From a virus (Duplodnaviria; Heunggongvirae; Uroviricota; Caudoviricetes), in IMG/VR virus record IMGVR_UViG_2870479586_000005: 42,950 bases of DNA; one strand, given 5' to 3'. Shown in pieces: positions 21,497 through 38,178 of this stretch; position 1 is the stretch's first letter; each line of letters begins with the position of its first letter. The notes under the pieces were generated by a model. The model saw only the letters and a program-made list of their open reading frames with translations, was not told the origin of the DNA and searched no databases. The translations under genes were made by a program, and so were the position numbers.

Positions 21497-22081
21497 TCAT
21501 TCCTGCCCAGTGCGGGAGTATGTTTCGCACCAGGTGGAACGAGAAACAGACAACATTCCAGCTAGCGCAGATCCGGCCATCTCCTTAAAATCCTCGCGTT
21601 TATTTGCTGCTGCGACCGCCTGCACGGACAACCACACCAACGAAAGCAGGCGCTTGACTACTTTTCTCTGAGTTGACGCAGAGATGTTTCCTTTATAGCG
21701 ACTCCAGACAGCCTCACAAATAGCTGTTTGGTGTTTGAACGCCAGGTTACCACCGTAGCAATAGCGCAACCACGCCTGCTGGCTAACGTCGAGCGCGTTC
21801 ACAGCGCGGCGCCACGATGAATCAGCGAATTCAAAATCATTCATCGGCGGCGCGGGGCGACGTCTGCTGAAACTTTCCAGGGCATAAACTGGCGTAACCA
21901 GAGCATCAACGGTCCGGTCCTCCAGTTGCACACGATGAATATGTTTGCGTGGGTATGCGTTTTTATCTGCTGGCGGGTGCTCACACAATGCTTCCAGTTG
22001 CCCCTTAGAACCACCAGACAAATCCCGCAATGCAGCGCGCAGTTTTATGCGGGTATATTCCAATAAATACTCGTTACTCAT
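21497..22081 (-). CDS. putative late-gene regulator (antiterminator Q-like by position)
   Basis: 194-aa ORF immediately upstream of the lysis genes and downstream of nin-like genes; no sequence motif recognised. Confidence 0.4.
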   Translation of the reverse strand: MSNEYLLEYTRIKLRAALRDLSGGSKGQLEALCEHPPADKNAYPRKHIHRVQLEDRTVDALVTPVYALESFSRRRPAPPMNDFEFADSSWRRAVNALDVSQQAWLRYCYGGNLAFKHQTAICEAVWSRYKGNISASTQRKVVKRLLSLVWLSVQAVAAANKREDFKEMAGSALAGMLSVSRSTWCETYSRTGQE

Positions 22082-23044: not shown

Positions 23045-23224
23045 TTACGCGTCAGGGGGTGTAATAGTATATCCAGCTATTTCTGCCAACTCGAGAAACG
23101 CCATCAGGCTGGCAATCCGTTCATCATCAGTCAGAACACGCACACCAACGATGTGTCCGTCCTTACGCTTGATAACAGCCCGGCATGTTTCCGGTAGTTC
23201 GCCTATAGATTCTTGAATATTCAT
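23045..23224 (-). CDS. small hypothetical protein (59 aa)
   Basis: ATG at 23224 preceded by an AGGGGG Shine-Dalgarno; below the ORF-track length cut-off. Confidence 0.25.
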   Translation of the reverse strand: MNIQESIGELPETCRAVIKRKDGHIVGVRVLTDDERIASLMAFLELAEIAGYTITPPDA

Positions 23225-23375
23225 GTCTTCCCCCTAACGCCATTGCCTGTGCATTTATACAGTATTTTATGGCATTTGTCATAACGCCAGATACAATGAG
23301 GGAATAATGAACAATTATATTCACGTCGTGAATTTTATTAAACGGTTTTATAGGGGATTAAACCGTTTATGGTCA

Positions 23376-24414: not shown

Positions 24415-24882
24415 TCATTGACCTATATCATTTTCGGTAATGAATGCTTTACACGGGATCCCGGTTGAGGTAATCTCCCAAACCGAGATCTCAACGAAAG
24501 CATTAACCGATGTTTTTGTATGGCCCTGACAGTTGGCGCTGTCAGGGCTTTCCCTTTGATGCGACTCTAAAAACTTCGCAACCTCCAGATCCTATCCAGG
24601 ACCAAGAAAAACTTCAATGAAAAGATCAAGTTAGATCTGTATTTTTTTACAGATGTAATAAATCACACATGTAATAGCCTTCCCTTTCCGTTCTCATCTG
24701 GCCTCTTGTGGCATCCATTTTTTTAAGAAACATATGGACGCCTAAAAAACCACTAATGTCATGATTATCATGTATGTTTTTACTGGAAACATTGAGCCAT
24801 CCACAATGCAGCGTAAAAAGCAAGCAATTCACAAGATTTTAAAGTGATTTATCTGGAAGACTTTACTACTAACAGTTAATAT

Positions 24883-24981: not shown

Positions 24982-25470
24982 ATGGCTACCAACCCAAGAG
25001 AGCACGCCCGGCGAGTGCTGGACACGTTCTGGTGCGGGCGTGGTTTCCCTGTTGATCCAGCGAAAATTGCTCACGACATGGGATTAGATGTTTTTATTAC
25101 CGATCTTCCTGGGAAAGTTTCTGGCGCACTGATTAAACAAAAAGATCAAGATCCAGCGATCTTTCTAAACAGTGATGACAACAAAGTTCGTCAACGTTTT
25201 TCATGTGGGCATGAGTTGGGGCATTACATCGCCCGGCAAGCATCGCATAGTGATGAATATGAGTACGTTGATTTACGTGGCGAAACCGCAAGCGCCGGAA
25301 CGCATCCTGATGAAATTTTTGCGAACAAGTTCGCAGCAGAACTTCTGATGCCGGTTGATGAGGTCAGAAAACTGCACGCTGACGGCCAACCAAGTTATAT
25401 AATGGCGCATTATTTTGGCGTATCTGACGATGCGATGACTTATCGTTTAAAGAACTTGAGGTTGGGGTAA
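24982..25470 (+). CDS. ImmA/IrrE-family Zn metallopeptidase (HExxH)
   Basis: 162-aa ORF; HELGHY motif within a DUF955/ImmA-like context; GGAGGA Shine-Dalgarno upstream. Confidence 0.75.
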   Translation: MATNPREHARRVLDTFWCGRGFPVDPAKIAHDMGLDVFITDLPGKVSGALIKQKDQDPAIFLNSDDNKVRQRFSCGHELGHYIARQASHSDEYEYVDLRGETASAGTHPDEIFANKFAAELLMPVDEVRKLHADGQPSYIMAHYFGVSDDAMTYRLKNLRLG

Positions 25471-25479
25471 CGCTTTAGA

Positions 25480-26085
25480 ATGCCATCGGATGACGATTTT
25501 AACAGCCGTTTCAAACAGGAAGTTGCACGCCGACTGAAGGATTCCCTCAACCTACACCGTCAGTTAGCAGAAGAGGTTGAGCCGGAGGACGATGAAACTC
25601 CGGTTCAGTCCCCTGATGAAACTTCACCTCTGCAAAAGATTTCGCACGACCCCAAAAAACCATCTGTCCGTATTCACGGAATAGCCAGAAAAAGAGCTGC
25701 CGAAGCTCGCAAAATGGCTGTAGCTGCGTCTAGCAAAAGAACTCCAACTGCTACACCATCTCAACAAGTCACCCGTACTGAGAGTAAAATCTTGACCGAG
25801 TTCACATCTGTGAAACAGGTGAGTTCACTTGATACCGAGCATGAGCGCAAACAACTCAACAACAAAGATTTTGAAGCTGAAATCGCTCTAAAAAAACGCT
25901 ACGGAAAATGGTTCCTGATAATCCTTGCTTGCCAACTTCTGATAATGAATGGGGTATTTATTGCCGACGGCGCAGGTAAGCTGGAATTTGAGGATTTAAC
26001 ACTACAGTTGTACATGGGCGGTACTTTGACAGAGGTATTCGGCCTCGTGCTGGTCGTGACAAAATACCTTTTTAAACGCAAGTAA
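25480..26085 (+). CDS. membrane protein with charged N-terminal region and two C-terminal TM helices
   Basis: 201-aa ORF starting 10 bp after the peptidase stop; C-terminus WFLIILACQLLIMNGVFIA and GGTLTEVFGLVLVVTKYLF are hydrophobic helices. Confidence 0.65.
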   Translation: MPSDDDFNSRFKQEVARRLKDSLNLHRQLAEEVEPEDDETPVQSPDETSPLQKISHDPKKPSVRIHGIARKRAAEARKMAVAASSKRTPTATPSQQVTRTESKILTEFTSVKQVSSLDTEHERKQLNNKDFEAEIALKKRYGKWFLIILACQLLIMNGVFIADGAGKLEFEDLTLQLYMGGTLTEVFGLVLVVTKYLFKRK

Positions 26086-27862: not shown

Positions 27863-28942
27863 TCACAAACGTTCATGATCAAGACTGTTTTCATCATTAT
27901 TTAAGTCATTAAGCATTTGAAGTGCGTCACGAGTACGTTCATAATTACTTTCAGGGTATAATCTAAACTTCATATTTTCCAAATTAATTAATTTTCTTTT
28001 TAATTTGAAGGAATCGTTAGAAAGTGACATTTCGTAAAAATCAATATCCCCCTGTCTGGATTGTAATGCACTCATAACGGAAAACTTAGCAGATTCTTTG
28101 AACCTCAAACCGAATGTAACATCGCTTAACCGAAATGGTGAGTTCTGTAAACCTTGATTATTAATAACTCGATATTCATTTTCATATTTCCAAGAAGGAG
28201 CTTTGCTGAGAAGAATGACCCTATCAATCTCTTTTTTGGCAGTATTCTTTATATTATCATTGCTGCCAAATAACATATCATGAACTTGTTGAGTTCTAAT
28301 AAATCGATTCCCTTTGTAATCAACTGGATGGATATCTAAAGAGTCATTTTCAGAAGTATCATATCCAATACAAAATCCCTTATGTTGATCAGCATAATGC
28401 GACCACATTAAGGGGCAGTTAAATTTTCTTGCTAATGAAAGAACACCAACCTCATAATTTTTTAGCAAGTATCTTTTAATATAAAAACTGGCGCTAGCAT
28501 AAAAATCATCACCATAATTATCAACATCCCACGAAATATTATCAATTAATTTTCGAGCTTCGCTTTCACCTAGCATTTCAATTTTCTCTAATGTCCTTAG
28601 ACCTTTATATTTAATTTTTTTTGCTGCTTTCGCTAGTTCCTTTTGATGATTTTCTTTTACTAATTTATGAAGGATAGAGTTCAATTCATTGACATTATTG
28701 ATGTCGTTTAACACGGAAGGATTACAATCCAAAGGGTCATTGAATGTTGTTGGATCAGCAAAATACAGTCTATCGCTTACAAGCAAGTCAAGACTATCAA
28801 CACTAAAGCTTTTATATTTATATAATCGAGAGGGAATATTCTGTATCATCACTTTTATCTCATAAATTTTTTTGATATTATCTGCCAATTCTAGCCCCAT
28901 GGGCAATAGCAAAATCGAAAAATACTCTCTACGTAAGGGCAA
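27863..28942 (-). CDS. DUF2971-like protein (candidate defence-associated)
   Basis: 359-aa ORF in AT-rich DNA; RLYKYKSF...LYFADPTTFNDPLDC...PLMWSHYADQHKGFCIGYD...KYENEYRV motifs recalled as DUF2971 hallmarks; start may be at an internal Met. Confidence 0.5.
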   Translation of the reverse strand: MPLRREYFSILLLPMGLELADNIKKIYEIKVMIQNIPSRLYKYKSFSVDSLDLLVSDRLYFADPTTFNDPLDCNPSVLNDINNVNELNSILHKLVKENHQKELAKAAKKIKYKGLRTLEKIEMLGESEARKLIDNISWDVDNYGDDFYASASFYIKRYLLKNYEVGVLSLARKFNCPLMWSHYADQHKGFCIGYDTSENDSLDIHPVDYKGNRFIRTQQVHDMLFGSNDNIKNTAKKEIDRVILLSKAPSWKYENEYRVINNQGLQNSPFRLSDVTFGLRFKESAKFSVMSALQSRQGDIDFYEMSLSNDSFKLKRKLINLENMKFRLYPESNYERTRDALQMLNDLNNDENSLDHERL

Positions 28943-29514: not shown

Positions 29515-30438
29515 ATGAGATTAAAATACTCAGTACTCTTACTCGCCATTGCCCTTACAGGCTGTGATAACAAAAAAGATGAGATCGGTTGTTCTTCGGA
29601 AATGACCCAATCAGCTCTCATGGATTTATTAAAAAAATCTGCTTATGAAGGACTCTCTGAACAGGTCGATAAATACCCTGATGTCACTAATCAGACCAAA
29701 CGAAGCACACTGGACAAGATCAAACTAGCCGTCTCTGAAATCTCCACAACATCAAGTGACACGGGCAGCACAATGAAAACTTGTGAAGGGACCGTGACGA
29801 TGACTCTACCTGCGAACGAGTACGTCCAGCTTTCAGATGCTTACAGAAAGAATTTTAATCGTAATCTCGACAAGCAAATGGAAAGCCTGTTTTTGGAGAA
29901 CAACGCAAACGCCTTTTCCAAACGTATCACCTACACCGTGCAGGCGACCGACGATCAGAAAAACGTTTTTGTAAAAACCTCTTCTGATAATCCGATATCA
30001 GTGGGCGCCGCTTTACTGACATCACTTTCTATTATCAACCCGATCGTTGAGCAGCAGAAAATCCAGCAGGCTAAGGATGCCCAACAGAGCCAAATTGAAG
30101 CGGAACAACAGGTGCAACTCAGGGCGCAGGAACAGGCTAAGTATGAGGCGGAGAAGCAAATAGAGAGACAGGCACAACTTCAGCCACAAAAAGCTGACAG
30201 CCTTGATCAGTCCCGAATGGCATTTGCGAATGCCGACTCTGATTTGAGTACCGTCTGGAGCAAGTTAACCCCGGCGAAGAAAAAAGATTTGCTGCCTTCT
30301 CAGCGTCAGTGGATCAAAACTAAGGATGCTATGTGCGGTAAAGTTTCAATGCAGGGAACAGATGCTGAAGTCAAGAAAATGCTCGACTGCCAGACGCAAA
30401 TGACCCTTTCAAGAATCGCTTTCCTCAGAAACCAATAA
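29515..30438 (+). CDS. lipoprotein with C-terminal LprI/DUF1311-like domain
   Basis: 307-aa ORF; signal peptide plus lipobox (LLLAIALTGC); Gln-rich coiled region; C-terminal QRQWIKTKDAMCG...KMLDCQT...RIAFL resembles lysozyme-inhibitor LprI-type domains. Confidence 0.65.
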   Translation: MRLKYSVLLLAIALTGCDNKKDEIGCSSEMTQSALMDLLKKSAYEGLSEQVDKYPDVTNQTKRSTLDKIKLAVSEISTTSSDTGSTMKTCEGTVTMTLPANEYVQLSDAYRKNFNRNLDKQMESLFLENNANAFSKRITYTVQATDDQKNVFVKTSSDNPISVGAALLTSLSIINPIVEQQKIQQAKDAQQSQIEAEQQVQLRAQEQAKYEAEKQIERQAQLQPQKADSLDQSRMAFANADSDLSTVWSKLTPAKKKDLLPSQRQWIKTKDAMCGKVSMQGTDAEVKKMLDCQTQMTLSRIAFLRNQ

Positions 30439-30612: not shown

Positions 30613-31401
30613 TCAAAATGCTGAATCAGCAACAGATACAGCCGACTTTTTCCCCATTACCATCAATTTATCCAGTGTCATACTTCGCAGATTGTCGCTG
30701 TGGATCACCAGATACCCTGCCCGCTCAGCGATCTCTTTGAAAGCGTCAAAGGTCATCAGATGTTCGCCTTTGGCAACATGGCGCATCCTTGTCACTTTTC
30801 CATTTTTGATAGTGGTGATAAAAGAAAAATCCGGAATGGTTGGCTGATTTTCATCGAGTAGCAGGCAGTGGATGTATTCAATCGCCTCTAACATTTGCGT
30901 CTGTGACAGTTGTTCTATGTGAGAGACGGCGAAGCGTTGATGAATCATGGTGTAGGCATCGGGATACATCATGCCTTTCTTACCGACCAGCATATTAACG
31001 GCATCACGTAAGGGAGTACGGTCATCGGTAGTTGTACTCCGCCTCTCTGGGCGCTGGCTAAAATAACAATCTTCAAGCTTTTCGAAAACTTCCCAAGCCT
31101 GTTCTGTTTCCAGCATTTTGGCATGGCGAGCTGCGCCGCGTTCTGTCCAGAGAATGAGGGATCGGGTATGTTTAGCAACTGACTGACTATCTGTCAGTCT
31201 GTTTTTGAAGTCGCGTAATTCATTACCTTCCAGCTTAAAAAAATGCTTTCCTACGACAAATCTGGCGATGTTGCGCTTGAAGTTTTGCTGGATACCATTT
31301 ACTTCCGTGCCATACAAACTGGCAAGCAATTCAGTAGTGATGACGGGAAGTTGGTTATGATGTAGCGGAGAAAGGGATTCCGCAGATATTTGGATTGTCA
31401 T
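30613..31401 (-). CDS. phage antirepressor (AntA/ORF6N-type N-terminus)
   Basis: Track ORF 30613-31449; ATG at 31401 has a GAGG Shine-Dalgarno; antirepressor-like character judged from recall. Confidence 0.6.
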   Translation of the reverse strand: MTIQISAESLSPLHHNQLPVITTELLASLYGTEVNGIQQNFKRNIARFVVGKHFFKLEGNELRDFKNRLTDSQSVAKHTRSLILWTERGAARHAKMLETEQAWEVFEKLEDCYFSQRPERRSTTTDDRTPLRDAVNMLVGKKGMMYPDAYTMIHQRFAVSHIEQLSQTQMLEAIEYIHCLLLDENQPTIPDFSFITTIKNGKVTRMRHVAKGEHLMTFDAFKEIAERAGYLVIHSDNLRSMTLDKLMVMGKKSAVSVADSAF

Positions 31402-31431
31402 CGCAGTGGCCTCACTTAGTGTTTTTTTCAT

Positions 31432-31462
31432 CACCACCAGCGACGCCAATCATCTGGTGGTG
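31432..31462. promoter_or_regulatory. perfect 9-bp inverted repeat (candidate operator of the antirepressor gene)
   Basis: CACCACCAG (31432-31440), 13-bp spacer, CTGGTGGTG (31454-31462), immediately upstream of the antirepressor start codons. Confidence 0.45.
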
Positions 31463-31673
31463 AACTGTGCAGGGTTGGCGTAACCGGCTAAGTGAACCCG
31501 GCGCTTCCGCAGAAGCCCCCACACAGCCCACCATAATGCGAATGTGGCCGTGCCTAACACATAAAAAAACCGCTAACGCGGCTATGCGTCACTTAGATAT
31601 CCGGGACGCCAATCCCGGCAACCGATTTTGCGGCTGCGCGGAAACTATAGCCCCGGGCTTTTTCTAAGTCAAT

Positions 31674-31895
31674 TCAATCAACTTCAAACCTCCGGTGTTC
31701 ACATTCCATACACTCAACGGGAACATCATCGCGATGCAAGTCCACATATCCGACCCGCTTATACAACTCAATAATGTCCGGTAACGTGACCAGATGTTTT
31801 TCCGGTTCCAACACCTCAGCCCTGGTTACTTTGTAATCTGAAATATAGAGCACTATCCGCCCGTTCCGTGGTAACTCCAGTTTATCGCCAAACAT
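31674..31895 (-). CDS. hypothetical protein
   Basis: 73-aa ORF in minus-strand early region. Confidence 0.3.
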   Translation of the reverse strand: MFGDKLELPRNGRIVLYISDYKVTRAEVLEPEKHLVTLPDIIELYKRVGYVDLHRDDVPVECMECEHRRFEVD

Positions 31896-32082
31896 GTCCT
31901 TTCCCTCCGGGAAACCAATGATATTGACGATATTACACCCACAACGATTCGTTTTACGTCACTCCGCAATCACCATACATACGTACCAATCCGTACATTC
32001 CCACCACAAAAATGGCATTCGGCGGGCACTGGTAATGGATTTTTAACGCGTGCTATTGCCTTGCGACGTATTTTCAACTCAC

Positions 32083-32307
32083 TCATACAGCCTCCCTGCT
32101 CTCAAATGGGCGAATATTGGTTGGTTCTCCACACGGAATAGCCCAACCCAGCCAGGTAAATATTTTCAGGTCACACATCGCGTCATACCGTTCGCCAGGA
32201 TTCACATCCACCATGCTGCAGGCAATTTCATATTGTTCACCATTATCAGTCAGTGCGATCTGGTCATTAATAAACCGGGGCACAAATGCCAGAAAAAGTT
32301 CTTTCAT
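32083..32307 (-). CDS. hypothetical protein
   Basis: 74-aa ORF, coupled to the upstream gene. Confidence 0.3.
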   Translation of the reverse strand: MKELFLAFVPRFINDQIALTDNGEQYEIACSMVDVNPGERYDAMCDLKIFTWLGWAIPCGEPTNIRPFESREAV

Positions 32308-32614
32308 GAAATCCTCCGCTCAAAATAAACATACTGATTCACCGCACCGATCGACATTTCGAGTTTTTCCGCGATATCCTGGCGATTAATACCCGACTGA
32401 TGTAATTCCCTTGCCAGCTCGATATCCTCCTGGCGGTATTTCACTGACTGGTGATAATTACCCGCAGATACATACAGATTTTCAACTCGCGCGCTTTTGT
32501 GCGTACCGCAGCACCGGTTCTTCCAATAAGCTGCCCTATACGTTCAACTGTCATGCTGCCCGCACATTGTTTGATGATTACGACTTCCGCACGCACCCAC
32601 CGTTTGTATTTCAT
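32304..32614 (-). pseudogene. HTH-containing small protein gene, apparently frameshifted
   Basis: ATG at 32614 opens a 57-codon frame (MKYKRWVRAEVVIIK...MTVERIGQLIGRTGAAVRTKAREL); a second frame continues to 32304 (...DIELARELHQSGINRQDIAEKLEMSIGAVNQYV); both halves look protein-like. Confidence 0.3.
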
Positions 32615-32847
32615 TGCTCCATCCCCCCTCTCCAGTAGTTCAGACGCTCTCTGAAAAATTCCCGGTACGTATCCGGCGTCATTCCGATTTGCTCAATCAC
32701 GCTTCCCCTCGGAATACGTTTCTCAAAGAGTTGGCGGATCAGCGTCGCCGCTCGCATGTCGTAGTGCTCTTTAAGCAGGTATTCCTGAGGCCATTTGGCG
32801 CGGTTGTGTGGTAAGCCGGGCGGCAGGTAATCTGATTGCCCTGCCAT
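32611..32847 (-). CDS. hypothetical protein
   Basis: 78-aa ORF with ATGA overlap to the downstream gene. Confidence 0.35.
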   Translation of the reverse strand: MAGQSDYLPPGLPHNRAKWPQEYLLKEHYDMRAATLIRQLFEKRIPRGSVIEQIGMTPDTYREFFRERLNYWRGGMEQ

Positions 32848-32848
32848 A

Positions 32849-33259
32849 TCACGTCCCTTTCTTTGCTATCGGAGTGATGGAACTCAGCAGCAGGCGACAG
32901 CGACCGGGCGCGCCAATGCGCTGTCCGGTTATCTTGTCGTAAGTTTCATGCGGTGAGGCACACCAGGTTGTCGCTGTTTCGTGGAGTTTCACTTGCCGCT
33001 CACCATTTCTGCGAATCGCGATCCCGATGTGCGTTTTACCCTTACATTTCACTGCTGGCGCTGCGGCTACGGATGCCTGACGGGCAGGCTGAGCTGGTGT
33101 TGAAAAATTGCCTGCTTTGGGTCTTGGTACAAAAACCGCACGAGTGCGCGCACGTGGCCCGGCGTTCATATTCCACAAAATGACGTCGAGATAGTTTTTA
33201 CCGTCGTCTATGTGTCCTTTGTCCGACGGGTACTCTAATTTGCCTGAAATGGTGGTCAT
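32849..33259 (-). CDS. hypothetical protein
   Basis: 136-aa ORF directly downstream of the helicase gene. Confidence 0.35.
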   Translation of the reverse strand: MTTISGKLEYPSDKGHIDDGKNYLDVILWNMNAGPRARTRAVFVPRPKAGNFSTPAQPARQASVAAAPAVKCKGKTHIGIAIRRNGERQVKLHETATTWCASPHETYDKITGQRIGAPGRCRLLLSSITPIAKKGT

Positions 33260-33297
33260 TGGTCTTTCCTCGGTTATTTCACGCTGGTCATGCGTGG

Positions 33298-34689
33298 TTA
33301 AAATGGGTCCGTATTAAAGTTTTTGTTTGAATACCGTTTTTCACGTTTTCTCGGTTGCTCTGCCTCCTTCTGGATGCGTAATTTTTCGCGTGCTACGTGT
33401 TGATCAACTGGCAGGAAATGCCCATTCCGGAATTCCTGATAAATAATTTCACCTGCCCCGCCAGAACGGTTTTTACCGATAATCACCTCGGCGATACCCT
33501 TTGCAGGTGAATCAGGTGTGTAAACTTCATCGCGGTACAAAAACAAAATGCTGTCAGCGTCCTGCTCAACACTGCCGGAATCGCGCAGGTCCGACATCAC
33601 CGGGCGACGCTGGCCAGCAGGTCGAGAATCCACCTGGCGGGAAAGCTGGCTAAGAGCAAAAACAGGGGTATGCAGACGCATGGCCATAGTCTTCATGTTG
33701 CGGGAGATATGCCCGACAGCGAGATCGTGGCGCTCGGCCTTCGGTTTTTTGATCAGGCCCATGTAATCAACACCAATCAACTTCAGGTGCGGATAACGGC
33801 GTTTATGAGTCTCTGCAATGGCGCGGATCTGCTCAATCGTCAAATCAGTGGCATCAACAATCCAGATATCGCGATCCTGCATGATTGCAAGCGCGGCGGT
33901 TAATCTGGTCAAATCCTCATCGTCCATTTCTTTTGGATTACGCAGACGCGACGTGGACATATTCCCAGCCCCGGCAACGGTACGTTCAACAATCTGCTGA
34001 GCGCCCATTTCCATGCTGAAAAACAGTGCGCCGCCGCCATCTGCGGTAACGCCATCGATAATCTTCAGGGTAAATTCCGTTTTCCCCATGCCTGGACGAC
34101 CGGCAACCACAACAAGGTCGGTCATGTTGATACCGCCCAGGGCGACATCCAGATCCTCGACTCCGGTTTTCAGCATCATTTCCTGCGCGTCGCCAGACAT
34201 CCGTTTATCAACGGTGTCAATGTAGAGCGGTAACAGCTCTTTGATGTGTACCGGCTGGACTGTGCCGGTAGCGGCGCTCATATCCAGCACCTGAGCAACA
34301 TGAGATTCAATAACCTCATCACGCTGACTCTGGTTTACAGCGTTACGGATACCATCCGCGCCAGATTGCAACAATGCCGCCATTTTGCGGCTCCGCCATG
34401 CCCGCACCATTTTCCCGGCATAGCCTTTCAGATTCGGTACCGTTGCCGGGATCCGGGATATTTGAGACAGATCCGCAAGGCTGGAACCGCCCAGCGCTTC
34501 GCTGATAAACAACATGTCGATCATGCCGTTCGCCAGTGCCTGCTTTTTGATTTCGCTGAAAGCGCGACGGTGAAACACGATGCTGAAGGCTTCCTCCGGA
34601 GTAGTGGCAATCACATCAAACGCGTCAGGCGTCGCGCCACCGTTAATCAGACCAGCGAGAACGATCGCTTCCAGTTCTTCTGGATTCAT
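33298..34689 (-). CDS. replicative DNA helicase (DnaB-like)
   Basis: 463-aa ORF; Walker A GRPGMGKT, Walker B-like IWIVD context, DnaB-type C-terminal motifs; follows the O-like gene. Confidence 0.85.
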   Translation of the reverse strand: MNPEELEAIVLAGLINGGATPDAFDVIATTPEEAFSIVFHRRAFSEIKKQALANGMIDMLFISEALGGSSLADLSQISRIPATVPNLKGYAGKMVRAWRSRKMAALLQSGADGIRNAVNQSQRDEVIESHVAQVLDMSAATGTVQPVHIKELLPLYIDTVDKRMSGDAQEMMLKTGVEDLDVALGGINMTDLVVVAGRPGMGKTEFTLKIIDGVTADGGGALFFSMEMGAQQIVERTVAGAGNMSTSRLRNPKEMDDEDLTRLTAALAIMQDRDIWIVDATDLTIEQIRAIAETHKRRYPHLKLIGVDYMGLIKKPKAERHDLAVGHISRNMKTMAMRLHTPVFALSQLSRQVDSRPAGQRRPVMSDLRDSGSVEQDADSILFLYRDEVYTPDSPAKGIAEVIIGKNRSGGAGEIIYQEFRNGHFLPVDQHVAREKLRIQKEAEQPRKREKRYSNKNFNTDPF

Positions 34690-35786
34690 AATGCCCCTTC
34701 CCTGGTTTTACGCAGTGTTTCTGGCTTCATCAGGTAATCAAACCCTGCCCGCCAGCCGGTGCGATATTCGCCGCCGAAATAGAAGTCTGGGGCGTTATCG
34801 CGGAATTTTTCGAAGTAGCCGATAAATGCGCCAAGAGTTTGCGTGCGCATATGTGCCAGCAGGCGCAGGATTGCCCGACGGCGGTCAGTATCAATTTCAG
34901 CTATAGGTAGCAGGTCGCCCAGAATCTCGTTGTAGCCCTTCACAACTTCAGCAGGGTCAACGGCAGCCTCAGCAGTGGCCCACGTCTCAGCGTCAGCCAG
35001 GTATCCGTCAAACCGGTTTACGCGGCAAATGTTCGCAGGTTTCGGAACGCTTCCGCTACGACGGCGCCATGTCGCAATAACCCAACGAATTACTAACTGA
35101 ATCTCAGCCACGCTGTAACCAGCGCGGGTGGTGGTGGCAGTTAGCAGCATGACAAACGGTTTAACGTCGCGGCAGCGGGTACCGACTTTCTCGTTGTAGT
35201 AGTTCAGAGCTTTTTGAGCGTCAGCGAGAATGATTTCCTCGCCCTCCCCCTTTTGGGGGTAAGGGGGATCTTTTATCTCTGTAGTACTCTCTGTTGTATT
35301 CTCTGTAGGAGATTGGGTCATTTTGACCTTAGCGCATGGGTCAACTTGACCTGATGCTTGGGTCACATTGACCTCTTCGATTGGGTCAACTTGACCTAAT
35401 CGATTGGCCACAGGGAATGTTGTCTCTTCAATCTTACATAACTGGGCATAATTGATTGAATACCACTTGGTTTTATCCCAGGCATCACTGTTAAAGTTCC
35501 CAGTAAGCAACACATTCAATTTTTCCAGATTGGCCAACACGCGTTTTATTGTCGACTCGCTCCAGAACGGGAATTGTTCTTGCCAGTCGGTCACACTGTT
35601 GTACACCCAGTGGCGATTTTCGAAGAAATTTTGAGACGAATTCAGCCAGTAGTGGATTTGCTGTAGAACGATGGCTTCATTCAACCCTATAGTGCATGCC
35701 AACGTGGGCAGGACCTGAAGGGGGTTTTCGTTAATCAGCAAACGACTCATACTCAGATCTCCAGAGCTTCGGCTATCTGACGACAA
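34686..35786 (-). CDS. replication initiation protein (lambda O-like) containing the origin iterons
   Basis: 366-aa ORF; four iterons lie inside the coding sequence (each translated as the GQVDP repeat), as in lambda O/ori; coupled to the helicase gene. Confidence 0.6.
   Translation of the reverse strand: MSSDSRSSGDLSMSRLLINENPLQVLPTLACTIGLNEAIVLQQIHYWLNSSQNFFENRHWVYNSVTDWQEQFPFWSESTIKRVLANLEKLNVLLTGNFNSDAWDKTKWYSINYAQLCKIEETTFPVANRLGQVDPIEEVNVTQASGQVDPCAKVKMTQSPTENTTESTTEIKDPPYPQKGEGEEIILADAQKALNYYNEKVGTRCRDVKPFVMLLTATTTRAGYSVAEIQLVIRWVIATWRRRSGSVPKPANICRVNRFDGYLADAETWATAEAAVDPAEVVKGYNEILGDLLPIAEIDTDRRRAILRLLAHMRTQTLGAFIGYFEKFRDNAPDFYFGGEYRTGWRAGFDYLMKPETLRKTREGAL
35331..35418. repeat. origin iterons (4 copies of an 18-19-bp palindromic unit)
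   Basis: TTGGGTCAACTTGACCT-like units, each an inverted repeat GGGTCA-N2-4-TGACC; adjacent 3x TCTCTGT(A/T)G direct repeat at 35276-35311. Confidence 0.7.
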
Positions 35787-35977
35787 CCGGCTTCATAGTC
35801 CGCATTGCTCAGCCCTTTGTCGCGCAACTCGACCTTCCTGGATTCATACTGCTCCCACACCGAAAGCGCGGCAGCCATACGCCCATCAAAAATAGGTTGG
35901 ATCTCTGCAACATGTGCCGGGCGCCCATTCAGGTGCCAGCCGTTACGCCAGGTAATGCGGTCAATATGTCTTAACAT
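35753..35977 (-). CDS. hypothetical protein
   Basis: 74-aa ORF between the YdaT-like and O-like genes. Confidence 0.3.
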   Translation of the reverse strand: MLRHIDRITWRNGWHLNGRPAHVAEIQPIFDGRMAAALSVWEQYESRKVELRDKGLSNADYEAGCRQIAEALEI

Positions 35978-36016
35978 CGGTCTTTCCTCGGTATAAGTTA
36001 AACGCTGGTCAGGCGC

Positions 36017-36493
36017 TCATGCATGGTGGCCTTGCGCAGTGCTTATCACTGCTCCTCGCGTCGCTACCAGCGCCGCTATTGCTTCGTCAATTTCCTGAAT
36101 AGTTAACTCTGGCGCGAAGTGGAGATGTACAGCGTTAATCGCTTCCACCCCTTCTTTTGCCGCCAGCGTTGCCAGCAAAACGGGATCGCCCGGCGACTCC
36201 AGACGCGCCCGCCGTTCTGCGGGTAGCACTGCTTTCATCACACTGGCCAGCACCTGAGTTTTTCGGCGCGCCGCCGTTGTCTCGCCACGTAACCAGCGAA
36301 AGATTTTCTGCCGGTTGTTGTTGATGGCTCTCCAGTCCACGTTGCCGTCCGTGTCCTCAAATTCATGTAGTCTCAACTCATCATTGCGTCCCTGACTGAA
36401 CCAGGCCCGGCAGATTTCAATCGTGACGAGTTCCTGCCCTGCCCTTGCCGCCCAGGTCAAAATCTCTTTTTGTAATTCCTCTTGGTTTTCCAT
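36017..36493 (-). CDS. YdaT-like regulator (CII-analogue position)
   Basis: 158-aa ORF; NNNRQKIFRWLRGETTAARRKTQVL recalls Rac YdaT (WLKGET region); second gene of the cro-side operon. Confidence 0.55.
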   Translation of the reverse strand: MENQEELQKEILTWAARAGQELVTIEICRAWFSQGRNDELRLHEFEDTDGNVDWRAINNNRQKIFRWLRGETTAARRKTQVLASVMKAVLPAERRARLESPGDPVLLATLAAKEGVEAINAVHLHFAPELTIQEIDEAIAALVATRGAVISTAQGHHA

Positions 36494-36552
36494 AGCGTCT
36501 CCTGTCGCTAAAAATTGATTACGCTTAATCAGATGTAATAAGCCGCCTTTTG

Positions 36553-36750
36553 CTAAGCTTTTTCATGTTTTGGAACATCGTAAAAAGTCGGGTCATATTT
36601 CAGTGCTCCATTAGTGATATGGTCGAGTCGAGCTGCTCGCTTTTCAGGAACTGTTGCCCCCCAACGAGTAACCGCCACTTGTGATATACCCAGCACCTTG
36701 GCTGTGGCTGTCTTTGAACCAAAAAAACTAATAACCGTCTCTGTTTTCAT
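36553..36750 (-). CDS. Cro/YdaS-like HTH regulator
   Basis: 65-aa ORF with an HTH (TATAKVLGISQVAVTRW); divergent from the repressor gene. Confidence 0.65.
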   Translation of the reverse strand: MKTETVISFFGSKTATAKVLGISQVAVTRWGATVPEKRAARLDHITNGALKYDPTFYDVPKHEKA

Positions 36751-36818
36751 AATTCCTCCGCGTAACTTTTGTTAGCAACATAAATACTAACGAAAGTTAT
36801 GTCAAGTTAACTTATATT
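36751..36818. promoter_or_regulatory. divergent promoter/operator region of the immunity switch
   Basis: 68-bp AT-rich spacer between divergent cro-like and repressor genes. Confidence 0.4.
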
Positions 36819-37232
36819 ATGAGGATGAAAAATTTGATGCTTAGCGACCGTTTATCTCAAAGACGCAAACAGCTTGGTCTAACCCAACAACAGCTTGCTG
36901 ATATGGTTGGAAGATCGAGTGTGAGCGTTTTTAAATGGGAAAGCGGACAAAATGAACCAAAGGGCCAGAACTTGTTGGCTTTGGCCAATGCACTCAAGTG
37001 TTCTGCCACATGGCTGCTTTTTGGTGACGAAGACCAGGCGCCAACTCCGGTAGACGAATTACCAACAGAGCTGGATTCACGTCAAAAAAGATTGTTAGAG
37101 TTATTTGATTCATTACCCGAGTCAGAAAAAGAAAAGCAACTAATTGAATTAGAAGATAAAGTTGAAAACTTTAATCGTTTATTTGAAGAGTTACTGGTTA
37201 CCAGAAAGAAACTAACCCCCACCAAAAAATAA
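36819..37232 (+). CDS. XRE-family HTH repressor (CI analogue lacking S24 peptidase domain)
   Basis: 137-aa ORF; HTH (LTQQQLADMVGRSSVSVFKWESG) then a coiled, acidic C-terminus; no Ser/Lys autoprotease motifs seen. Confidence 0.7.
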   Translation: MRMKNLMLSDRLSQRRKQLGLTQQQLADMVGRSSVSVFKWESGQNEPKGQNLLALANALKCSATWLLFGDEDQAPTPVDELPTELDSRQKRLLELFDSLPESEKEKQLIELEDKVENFNRLFEELLVTRKKLTPTKK

Positions 37233-37235
37233 AAT

Positions 37236-37270
37236 AAAGGCAATGTTTTCAATGCATTGCCTTTATTTTT
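37236..37270 (+). terminator. rho-independent terminator after the repressor gene
   Basis: AAAGGCAATG-9 nt loop-CATTGCCTTT followed by ATTTTT, starting 4 nt after the stop. Confidence 0.65.
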
Positions 37271-38178
37271 ACCCCAAATACTAACTTTTGTTATAAAACA
37301 TCTTGCACATAAAATTACCTTTAGTTATATTCATTCCATCAACAACGCTTACCCAGCGGCAGTTGTTCAGAAACACGTTCTGACAGCCGGAAAGACGGCA
37401 CCAAATTTTGCGCGTCGGCGCCAACACGGTGACAGAGGGAAAGACTTCACCGGCATATGGCACATGTGTCGAAGCGGTCTGGATGGAAGCGGAGCCTTAA
37501 CGCGTTGTCTCCATAGCAGGTAGCCGGAATGTGCAAGCCACAGCCAGGTATGAGCGATTGATTCACCATCAAGGCGATACGGTGTGACCACCAGGGAAGA
37601 GTCCTGGCTACAACACGAGAGCGCACTTCATCGACTCAACTTTGAGCTTTGTCGTTAAATTTTGAAATGGCGGAGTGCGCTCCCGGTTGTGGTGAACAGG
37701 TGTTTAACGGGAACTCCCTGCCCGTTACCCGGTTCGATTCCGGGCGCCCATCATCAATTTGCTGTGTTTAGTCTTTGCCCAGTCCGCACGATGGGCCATT
37801 TTTTCACACAGCCAGGTTTTATCGCTGTGCCTGAGTCCCCAACAGGAGAGGCCAAACCCGCAGCGTGACACCAGGGAAAGACCGGAGGAAGTACCACGCC
37901 TGACCAGCGTTGACCATGAGCCTGACCAGCTCAAAACAGGAAAGACCAGCCCTGTACGGTCGTAATGGAAACATAACGACGCCGGAAACGTAACCGGCAC
38001 CCTTTAGATAGCAAAAGACCCGCACAAGGCGGGCCAGTTACCCCGAACGGCGACCAAACCATTCGGATTTATCACAAGTGACCAAACTTGTGATGAGGAA
38101 AGACCAACGACACTGACGCTATGGAAGCTGATCAATATTCGCTGATCGGCTCTGAGTATACATTACCAAGGAGTCGCT

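Follow-up and report, generated by a model that had tools for sequence, protein, structure and literature searches.

We analysed a stretch of 42,950 nucleotides (nt) of DNA, referred to below as the window, from a virus of the Caudoviricetes (IMG/VR record IMGVR_UViG_2870479586_000005), with attention to the antirepressor gene ant, the inverted repeat that precedes it, and the prophage repressor. The original prediction, made from the sequence alone, had combined a repressor without a protease domain with a separately controlled antirepressor gene behind a perfect inverted repeat. Candidate regulatory RNAs were found upstream of ant, and a candidate LexA-controlled antirepressor gene was found elsewhere in the window.

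The ant locus

The following genes and regulatory elements are located at ant and upstream of it.

30613-31401, minus strand: ant, encoding an antirepressor of 262 amino acids (aa); ORF6N domain (8e-22), PHROG anti-repressor families (4e-161)
31412-31419 (31410-31419 including the Shine-Dalgarno box), minus strand: target a2, CUAAGUGA, complementary to C4 loop 1
31412-31534, minus strand: frame of 40 aa at the position of Gifsy-1 orf45, starting at the AUG at the 5' end of C4 and stopping 10 nt before the ant ATG
31431-31463, minus strand: RNA hairpin UCACCACCAG-N13-CUGGUGGUGA, -19.7 kcal/mol, with b2 UUGGCGU (31449-31443) in the loop
31453-31538, minus strand: C4-type antisense RNA, the equivalent of Gifsy-1 STnc1160; Rfam RF01695, full-length model, 74.5 bits (gathering score 45)
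31563-31637, minus strand: small RNA IsrK; Rfam RF01394, 80.4 bits (gathering score 50)
31598-31650, minus strand: c4-a1b1 motif, overlapped by IsrK; Rfam RF03163, 52.9 bits (gathering score 46.7)
31644-31672, minus strand: sigma-70-like promoter of the isrK-C4-ant unit; TTGACT, 17 nt, TATAGT, 10 of 12 positions matching

The antirepressor gene proposed earlier at 30613-31401 is upheld by both the Pfam and the PHROG matches. Just upstream of it, on the minus strand, three Rfam families (c4-a1b1, isrK and the C4 antisense RNA) exceed their gathering scores, and the elements follow each other in the order promoter, IsrK (with c4-a1b1), C4 antisense RNA, ant. Viral contigs were scanned with the N-terminal domain of Ant; the scan yielded 80 loci with 35 distinct upstream regions, and 15 representatives of these were aligned. 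All statements about homologous leaders refer to this set. The isrK promoter is retained in it: TTGAC and the CCGGGGCTATA core are invariant or nearly so, and two of the 15 sequences read GGGAT. No LexA box was found at this promoter (best position weight matrix (PWM) score -1.6 bits). An operator of the prophage repressor was also considered here and rejected, as the interval 31640-31700 contains no copy of the candidate operator TAAC-N4-GTTA with at most one mismatch.

IsrK carries b1, UUGGCGU (31612-31606), in the loop of its hairpin 2, followed by a1, CUAAGUGA (31596-31589). At its 3' end the terminator scan found an intrinsic terminator (31583-31563), a hairpin with a subsequent U7 tract. 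The loops of C4 read UCACUUAG (loop 1, 31495-31488) and ACGCCAA (loop 2, 31481-31475). The complement of loop 1, CUAAGUGA, occurs once in IsrK, as a1, and once in the leader (31419-31412), as a2, where it overlaps the Shine-Dalgarno box GAGG of ant (31413-31410), 8 nt before the ATG. Loop 2 is in turn complementary to b2. The distance between the 3' end of C4 and the ant start codon is 51 nt. Judging by this arrangement, ant is the distal gene of an RNA cassette of the P1 immI or Gifsy-1 isrK type and appears to have no operator-controlled promoter of its own.

The inverted repeat

The repeat upstream of ant had been described as a perfect 9-bp repeat at 31432-31462. It exists and is perfect, but its true arms are 10 bp long, TCACCACCAG (31431-31440) and CTGGTGGTGA (31454-31463), 13 nt apart, and its extent is 31431-31463. 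Eight distinct perfect repeats whose arms have 10 bp or more and whose loops have 3-20 nt occur in the window, versus a mean of 0.6 and a maximum of four in 50 shuffled sequences; the non-random nature of the repeat is confirmed.

In the RNA, the 5' arm UCACCACCAG is at the same time the 3' strand of the closing stem of C4, and it is part of the Rfam C4 model. Therefore the hairpin and the C4 closing stem are mutually exclusive pairings, and the repeat sits in transcribed RNA and not in a promoter. The promoter scan found no sigma-70-like promoter between the repeat or C4 and the ATG of ant. The hairpin folds in all 15 homologous leaders, with energies from -11 to -21 kcal/mol. Its outer stem UCACCACC/GGUGGUGA hardly varies among them, substitutions in the inner stem are compensatory, and the loop contains the motif UUGGNNN in every leader.

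The repeat could also be seen as a DNA operator at a promoter of ant, bound by an Arc/Mnt-like or LexA-like factor, with ant being a DNA-damage-responsive inducer. Indeed, it is perfect, non-random and located just upstream of ant, and Ant is similar in its residues 104-183 to P22 Ant, the gene of which is under operator control. However, there is no promoter-like site between C4 and ant for such a factor to act upon, the 5' arm of the repeat belongs to the C4 model, and the pattern of substitutions is that of an RNA, with compensatory changes in the inner stem and a loop that co-varies with loop 2 of C4 (see below). Furthermore, no Arc/Mnt-like open reading frame (ORF) adjoins the locus, and the PWM shows no LexA-like sequence at the repeat. 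An operator is therefore extremely improbable, and the repeat is better described as a conserved RNA hairpin that would present the target of an antisense RNA, not as an operator or promoter element. The separate control of ant that had been proposed stands, but it would be exerted by the IsrK/C4 RNA cassette and not by a DNA-binding protein.

Covariation of the C4 loops with their targets

In the alignment of the 15 leaders, the 7-bp helix between C4 loop 2 and b2 has 100% of its cells paired, and five of the seven pairs change on both sides. This level was reached in none of 500 shuffles, and controls with a slid partner were 31-54% paired. The helix between loop 2 and b1 of IsrK is likewise 100% paired, again with five compensatory pairs out of seven.

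For loop 1 the alignment was out of register (about 50% paired), and alignment-based covariation was dropped in favour of duplex energies calculated for each sequence. The cognate duplexes of loop 1 with a2 of the leader have a mean of -9.8 kcal/mol versus -5.3 kcal/mol for non-cognate ones, and those with a1 of IsrK -9.1 versus -5.2 kcal/mol; none of the 198 non-cognate pairs is as strong as the cognate mean. Among the 15 leaders, loop 1 takes at least ten different sequences, each matched both in IsrK and at the site proximal to the Shine-Dalgarno box, which argues that selection keeps C4 able to pair with the ant leader and not only with IsrK. The variety of loop 1 speaks for diversifying selection acting on immunity specificity at the RNA level, as between P1 and P7.

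The closest experimental data come from Gifsy-1, where isrK-orf45-anrP is transcribed from the isrK promoter and the read-through mRNA stays silent in translation (Hershko-Shalev et al. 2016, PMC4825925). IsrK supplied in trans increases anrP translation 139-fold, AnrP induces Gifsy-1, and processing of the orf45 region yields STnc1160, a stable RNA (PMC4825925). This region is the position of the C4 match of Rfam. When positions are counted along the Rfam alignment, as we did, the compensatory pairs published as G28-C162 and G31-C159 join b1 to loop 2. The double mutants gave 224 and 327 Miller units versus 4 in the wild type (PMC4825925); they restore the b1:loop 2 pairing but would leave loop 2:b2 mismatched. 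Their partial recovery of repression fits a contribution from the downstream site.

It has to be considered whether IsrK acts alone, as in the published Gifsy-1 model, through alternative folds of the read-through transcript and an orf45-like frame translationally coupled to ant, the excised C4 being no repressor. This model is backed by genetics and structure probing in Gifsy-1, where moreover constitutive STnc1160 gave no relief of IsrK toxicity (PMC4825925), and the window does have a 40-aa frame at the same place that ends 10 nt before the ant ATG. On the other hand, the length of this frame among the 15 leaders is 8-45 aa, and in homologues it often ends far upstream of ant. As the frame is not conserved, coupling of the orf45 type was rejected as a general feature. 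Both C4 loops are also kept complementary to the downstream sites a2 and b2, which are not used in the published model, and the double mutants restore repression only partly. On balance, action of IsrK alone is unlikely to be the full explanation here. The IsrK-only model and repression by C4 are compatible and not mutually exclusive.

The repressor and the immunity region

The immunity region contains the following genes and sites.

36819-37232, plus strand: prophage repressor of the DicA/GfoR family, 137 aa; HTH_3 domain at the N-terminus, helical C-terminal half containing the motif LLELFDSLPESEK
36763-36819, no strand assigned: OR-like operator cluster; TAAC-N4-GTTA at 36763-36774 and 36788-36799, copy with one mismatch at 36808-36819
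37282-37331, plus strand: OL/PL-like region; operator at 37282-37293 identical to the copy at 36763, copy with one mismatch at 37316-37327
36553-36750, minus strand: Cro-like regulator; Pfam P22_Cro (7e-20)
36017-36493, minus strand: YdaT/CII-like protein; Pfam YdaT_toxin (2e-15), phrog_163 CII-like (2.8e-42)

The repressor has Pfam matches to helix-turn-helix families only (HTH_3, 1.4e-14) and no Pfam match to Peptidase_S24. Its residues 5-74 match the DNA-binding domain of P22 C2 in PDB (5e-15), and no PDB profile matches its C-terminal half. The features of lambda CI and LexA (S24 domain, Ser/Lys dyad, Ala-Gly site) were not found in it in the Pfam and PDB comparisons. It is 52% identical to DicA of E. 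coli K-12 over the full length, including the C-terminal half (2e-48), and 31% identical to the Gifsy-1 repressor. The absence of an S24 autoprotease domain, noted earlier, is confirmed. By homology, the repressor is of the short type represented by DicA and by GfoR and GtgR of Gifsy phages, and would be unable to cut itself. Since it has no protease domain, relief would have to come from antirepressors. In the DicA/GfoR family such relief has been demonstrated experimentally (PMC3121763, PMC10448788). Lemire et al. described short non-cleavable Gifsy repressors inactivated by small LexA-controlled antirepressors (PMC3121763), and Rem, the antirepressor of DicA, derepresses the DicA-controlled promoter dicBp 165-fold. 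The DicA-family repressors compared here have the C-terminal motif LLxLFxxLPExEK in common, which could be a common docking site for antirepressors.

Exact TAAC-N4-GTTA sites occur four times in the window versus 0.52 expected. When one mismatch is allowed, three copies lie between cI and cro and two just downstream of cI. The OR-like cluster overlaps a leftward PR-like promoter (TTGACA 36805-36800, TATGTT 36782-36777), and the OL/PL-like region contains two overlapping promoter-like sites.

A LexA box upstream of a small gene

Two further features were found at some distance from ant.

23045-23224, minus strand: Rem-like protein of 59 aa, candidate LexA-controlled antirepressor; phrog_340 (1.6e-20)
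23245-23281, minus strand: SOS-type promoter; -35 TGACAA (23281-23276), -10 TATAAA (23259-23254), LexA box TACTGTATAAATGCACAGGC (23264-23245)

According to the original prediction, no canonical LexA box is present. For the region 30.4-37.4 kb this agrees with the PWM scan, whose best match there (12.6 bits) lies in a replication gene and is about at the shuffle level (mean maximum 12.2 bits), but it does not hold for the prophage as a whole, which contains exact CTGT-N8-ACAG boxes at 23247-23262 and 24637-24652. The box at 23245-23264 is the best PWM match in the whole window (17.1 bits, versus a maximum of 15.9 bits in 20 shuffles). It overlaps the -10 box of a promoter whose -35 box is located 16 nt upstream of the -10, and 20 nt separate the end of the LexA box from the start codon of the 59-aa gene. 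At homologous loci the LexA box is situated 18-20 nt from the ATG and scores 19.5-25.8 bits; in a homologue whose protein is only 75% identical the score is 25.8 bits. The positive control, the dinI box of Gifsy-1, reaches 23.9 bits at a distance of 19 nt.

A terminator-like hairpin (23339-23369) precedes the promoter of the 59-aa gene; such hairpins were also described for Gifsy loci (PMC3121763). Of 5426 complete E. coli genomes, 444 have the DNA segment with this gene and its LexA box, among them that of the ST131 strain EC958. The upstream neighbour encodes a 225-aa phrog_5215 protein, and the downstream neighbours are DUF1367, DUF1364 and Q. No homologue of dinI or irsA was noticed near the gene in gene-context scans, and no aimed search for one was made. 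An operator-like site with one mismatch at 23282, beside the promoter, is no different from 22 other such sites in the background and was rejected. Most likely, DNA damage enters the system through the 59-aa gene, whose box LexA would bind, and not through ant.

Another possible route from DNA damage is cleavage of the repressor in trans by an ImmA/IrrE (CapP-like) metalloprotease encoded at 24982-25470, the palindrome at 24635-24654 serving as the SOS input. ImmA cleaves ImmR and CapP cleaves CapH; proteases of the ImmA/IrrE family cleave XRE-type repressors after DNA damage. The gene product matches Peptidase_M78 in Pfam (7.7e-18) and capP in PADLOC (2.4e-25), and the second exact box (24637-24652) is located 330 bp upstream of the gene. 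However, this palindrome scores 13.6 bits, within the shuffle range, for which reason it was not counted as evidence of SOS control. The gene itself belongs to an accessory island 11 kb away from the repressor, where its neighbour encodes a membrane protein and no helix-turn-helix gene adjoins it, and the protease matches defence-system models of PADLOC, whereas the documented mechanism for DicA-family repressors is the binding of an antirepressor. We would give proteolysis in trans a very slight chance, and retain the 59-aa gene as the candidate entry point.

The Rem-like module

A further small protein related to the 59-aa one is encoded directly upstream of the RNA cassette.

31674-31895, minus strand: Rem-like small protein of 73 aa, candidate antirepressor; phrog_340 (3.5e-21), good Shine-Dalgarno box

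It closes the early operon, with no other ORF between it and the isrK promoter. NZ_CP098214 has no coding sequence at its position, and it is unannotated in RefSeq at 99.9% genome identity.

Ant itself consists of three parts, namely the N-terminal ORF6N domain, a middle segment that resembles P22 Ant, and, at the C-terminus, a Rem-like module (approximately residues 191-241). The N-terminal 116 residues are 74% identical to those of Gifsy-1 AnrP (4e-63), and the C-terminal parts of the two proteins differ. Residues 104-183 are 54% identical to P22 Ant. The family phrog_340, which has no assigned function, matches three items in the window, the 59-aa ORF, the 73-aa ORF and residues 197-238 of Ant (2.8e-12), and Rem also belongs to it (4.4e-21). 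In the LT2 record of Gifsy-1, the neighbour of dinI encodes a 73-aa protein that we take to be GfoA/GftA; this protein falls into another PHROG.

A profile of the window copies was compared with 1.8 billion representative proteins, giving 123 clusters, and a family hidden Markov model (HMM) was built with 93 small members (at most 110 aa). It was then run against 1317 sequences, made up of the named proteins and of all stop-to-stop frames from the window, from Gifsy-1 and from the Qin locus. The only matches were the three window copies, Rem (1.9e-7), the C-terminus of AnrP (2.8e-4) and GfoA/GftA (3e-3), and the same core is aligned in all of them. In all ten long family members that were scanned, the module is located C-terminally to a Rha, Bro-N, P22_AR_N, ORF6N or KilA-N domain.

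The similarity is visible at the level of profiles: pairwise BLASTP produces no alignment between the 59-aa protein and Rem, tblastn of the 59-aa protein against phages returned three records only, and a word-indexed protein search returned close relatives only. No Pfam family corresponds to the module, and the profile search found no PDB relative of either the module or Ant. An AlphaFold model of the 59-aa protein (predicted local distance difference test score, pLDDT, 78) has no Foldseek match with E below 1.

The module is probably the repressor-binding part of the 59-aa protein, the 73-aa ORF product and the C-terminus of Ant. A broader and more tentative suggestion, which we hold to be possible though short of an even chance, is that this beta-hairpin plus helix of about 45 residues, as in Rem and GfoA, is a portable repressor-binding unit of many phage proteins of the Ant, Bro, Rha, KilA-N and ORF6N kinds, deployed here in three differently wired copies.

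The 5655-aa library protein P0011 matched the Rem-like profile in 24 separate stretches (3.7e-22) and was left out of the HMM by its length. These matches may be an artefact of low complexity or repeats.

Comparison with known systems

The ant cassette is most similar to isrK-orf45-anrP of Gifsy-1. The same three Rfam elements occur in the same order, the end of C4 and the start codon of the antirepressor are 51 nt apart here and 54 nt apart in Gifsy-1, a short frame overlaps C4, and the sequences of b1 and loop 2 are identical, as are 74% of residues in the N-domain of the antirepressor. The differences concern loop 1 of C4 (UCACUUAG here, GGUGAU in Gifsy-1), the antirepressor (Ant has 262 aa with a P22-Ant-like middle part and a clear Rem-like C-terminus, whereas AnrP has 187 aa) and the location: here the cassette follows the replication-side early genes, with the 73-aa Rem-like ORF upstream, and not antQ, and Q is 9 kb away. 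Downstream of ant there is no Rfam match to isrJ, unlike in Gifsy-1.

The immI region of P1 and P7 is composed of the C4 RNA, upstream sites a1 and b1, downstream sites a2 and b2, and the antirepressor. Here too C4 is on the same transcript as its target, a1/b1 upstream and a2/b2 downstream are complementary to the two C4 loops, the downstream target overlaps a ribosome-binding site, and loops and targets co-vary in specificity. In P1 and P7, ant expression depends on translation of icd, the primary repressor also controls the operon promoter, and C4 is cut out of its precursor by RNase P and acts in trans. P1/P7 immI, as given by Citron & Schuster (1990) in the citation of PMC8201110, is c4 antisense RNA-icd-ant. 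In the window there is no icd gene; only 51 nt and a frame of 40 aa that is not conserved connect C4 and ant, and the target overlaps the Shine-Dalgarno box of ant itself. Two further differences are that the isrK promoter lacks an operator of the primary repressor, and that the a1/b1 segment ends in a terminator, making it a free-standing small RNA, IsrK.

The pairs GfoR/GfoA and GtgR/GftA of Gifsy phages and DicA/Rem of Qin have in common with the window a short repressor without the Ala-Gly/S24 module. As in the Gifsy paradigm, the candidate SOS-controlled antirepressor is a small gene outside the immunity region, with a terminator-like hairpin upstream and a predicted LexA box over its promoter; in that paradigm the operon is dinI-antirepressor-irsA, and here the gene-context scans, which were not aimed at these partners, showed the 59-aa gene apparently by itself ahead of the nin/Q genes. 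The likeness to Qin lies in the repressor, 52% identical to DicA, and in the 59-aa protein, which is in the PHROG of Rem, but the window gene has a LexA box and K-12 rem does not. The window also differs from both the Gifsy and the Qin systems in that a single prophage has the module three times, once as part of an ORF6N protein.

The antirepressor operon of N15 has the layout C4-like RNA, icd, antA-C, so that an RNA cassette of the immI type and an SOS-dependent antirepressor occur together there as well. The LexA box of N15 is on the promoter of the RNA-gated operon, whereas here it is on a separate gene 8 kb away. AntC is given as a LexA-controlled antirepressor by Mardanov & Ravin (2007), in the citation of PMC3121763. 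Finally, the immI region of P22, in which ant is accompanied by Arc, Mnt and the sar RNA, is related through the central segment of Ant, but the window has no arc or mnt genes or operators, a C4-type RNA in place of sar, and a different N-terminal domain of the antirepressor.

All components belong to described families, and this is no new kind of system. The one mildly new point is the presence of three differently wired Rem-like copies in one prophage.

The prophage and its heteroimmune relative

The 7 kb surrounding ant and the immunity region are 99.9% identical to a chromosomal prophage of E. coli Z0117EC0036. This prophage is bordered by the tRNA Gly-Cys-Leu cluster (leuZ side), with an adjoining integrase gene, and by yecA, and contains lambdoid early genes and contractile-tail late genes. 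In the window, the plus strand carries cI and the early-left genes, and the minus strand carries Cro, the YdaT/CII-like gene, the replication genes, ant, Q, and the lysis and structural genes.

A prophage of the same family with another immunity cassette is present in EC958. The segment swapped between the two is exactly 36535-37330 (cro, operators, cI, OL/PL), its right edge, 37330/37331, falling within the OL/PL-like region, and the flanks are 97.7-100% identical. The repressor of the sibling is only 31% identical to that of the window, with the C-terminal motif kept as LLxLFxxLPESEK. Its Ant is 98% identical, the ant leader is 99% identical, and the 59-aa protein is identical and has the same accession. 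Because Ant and the 59-aa protein are kept with so different a repressor, the antirepressor set appears to be common to heteroimmune phages, which echoes the cross-reactivity seen in Gifsy phages.

The same observation could mean that Ant and the Rem-like proteins act on other prophages or incoming phages, as FsoA of Fels-1 does, or that Ant has a different ORF6N role. FsoA has no role in inducing its own prophage (PMC3121763), the set of Ant and the 59-aa protein is shared with EC958 irrespective of the repressor, and the many types of C4 loops suggest selection for immunity between phages. However, the Gifsy antirepressors act on several non-identical repressors including their own (PMC3121763), AnrP does induce Gifsy-1 (PMC4825925), and the motif LLxLFxxLPExEK of the compared DicA-family repressors could provide a docking site common to repressors that otherwise differ. 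Crosstalk or another role as the main function is given a small chance only, and action on the resident repressor is preferred.

Several other observations were made in the window. The antiterminator gene Q (21497-22081, minus strand) is cut to 194 aa, and its C-terminus is out of frame compared to the 223-aa Q of the EC958 sibling; RefSeq marks the 99.9%-identical copy as a pseudogene. With the shortened Q, the prophage may be unable to express its late genes properly. A stretch of about 850 nt (37331-38178) that separates the PL-like promoter from the first early-left gene has no convincing ORF; it is 97.7% conserved in the EC958 sibling. An Rfam search of this stretch produced sub-threshold matches only (RprA-like, 37.4 bits versus a gathering score of 70), and a known small RNA downstream of the repressor was rejected on these grounds. 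The stretch may be a long structured leader or an RNA of a kind that has not been described.

The AT-rich accessory island between the nin/Q region and ant contains a gene for a DUF2971 protein (27863-28942, minus strand) that matches the PADLOC candidate defence family PDC-S31 (1e-50). The region 24982-26085 (plus strand) encodes the ImmA/IrrE metalloprotease followed by a 201-aa membrane-protein-like phrog_5346 protein, and may be a damage-sensing accessory or defence module. Directly downstream of ant, on the opposite strand, is a lipoprotein-like gene (29515-30438, plus strand) with a C-terminal LprI (lysozyme inhibitor) domain, probably a moron.

A model of the lysogeny switch

We consider it likely that the explanation as a whole is correct, that is, a short DicA-type repressor, an Ant gated by IsrK and C4, and an SOS input through the 59-aa gene with its LexA box. 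Induction is probably antirepressor-mediated and Gifsy-like. To this extent the original prediction of a Gifsy-type switch survives, with the family of the repressor and the AnrP-like Ant in its favour, but it had missed the LexA-boxed 59-aa gene, and the palindrome on which it relied appears to be an RNA element.

In the model, the lysogeny switch would be a short DicA/GfoR-type repressor relieved by antirepressors. The constitutive-looking promoter at 31672-31644 (minus strand) would make IsrK, with most transcripts ending at the IsrK terminator. Transcripts that read through would contain the C4-type antisense RNA, then the 51-nt leader, then ant. C4 bound to b2 and a2 would keep ant untranslated, and an excess of IsrK, which carries the same two sequences, would compete for C4 or remodel the transcript and switch ant on. 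After DNA damage, the LexA-overlapped promoter would produce the 59-aa Rem-like protein, as with GfoA and GftA of Gifsy phages. The 59-aa protein, the 73-aa ORF product and the C-terminus of Ant would all bind the repressor through the Rem-like module.

A number of points weigh against this model. For this prophage, all the evidence comes from sequence analysis. In Gifsy-1, constitutive expression of STnc1160/orf45 strengthened the toxicity of IsrK and did not weaken it (PMC4825925), which is a misfit to a simple model of C4 repressing ant. The mutations G28A and G31A in the IsrK part (b1) of a fusion raise basal expression (PMC4825925), which is a misfit to a pure titration model. Because of these two results, we treat the direction of control by C4 as inferred. 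Homologues do not conserve the orf45-like frame, on which translational coupling depends in Gifsy-1. On the SOS side, the LexA PWM was built from SOS boxes entered by hand, and the window box scores lower (17.1 bits) than the boxes of related loci. No LexA box is found by the PWM at K-12 rem, in agreement with the published lack of induction of dicBp by mitomycin C. The link between the 59-aa protein and Rem rests on profiles, and those to GfoA and AnrP are marginal. Finally, since the EC958 sibling keeps Ant and the 59-aa protein with a repressor of 31% identity, the cognate pairing of antirepressors and repressor is a presumption.

The analysis suggests that a perfect palindrome in front of an antirepressor gene, easily misread as the operator of a protein, is in this case an RNA hairpin. 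The published IsrK data from Gifsy-1 can be reread in the same way, as the loops of C4/STnc1160 may also pair with a2 and b2 in the anrP leader. A probable induction route is proposed for a common family of E. coli prophages, and the Rem/DicA pair of Qin is linked to intact relatives that have a Rem-like gene with a conserved LexA box. If the more tentative suggestion of a portable Rem-like module is true, the LexA-controlled 59-aa gene, the feed-forward 73-aa ORF and the RNA-gated Ant fused to ORF6N would together act on a DicA-type repressor as an induction switch with three inputs. A single superfamily would then unite Rem, GfoA/GftA and the C-terminal parts of AnrP-type antirepressors, and the trigger of Qin Rem may have been, ancestrally, the SOS response.

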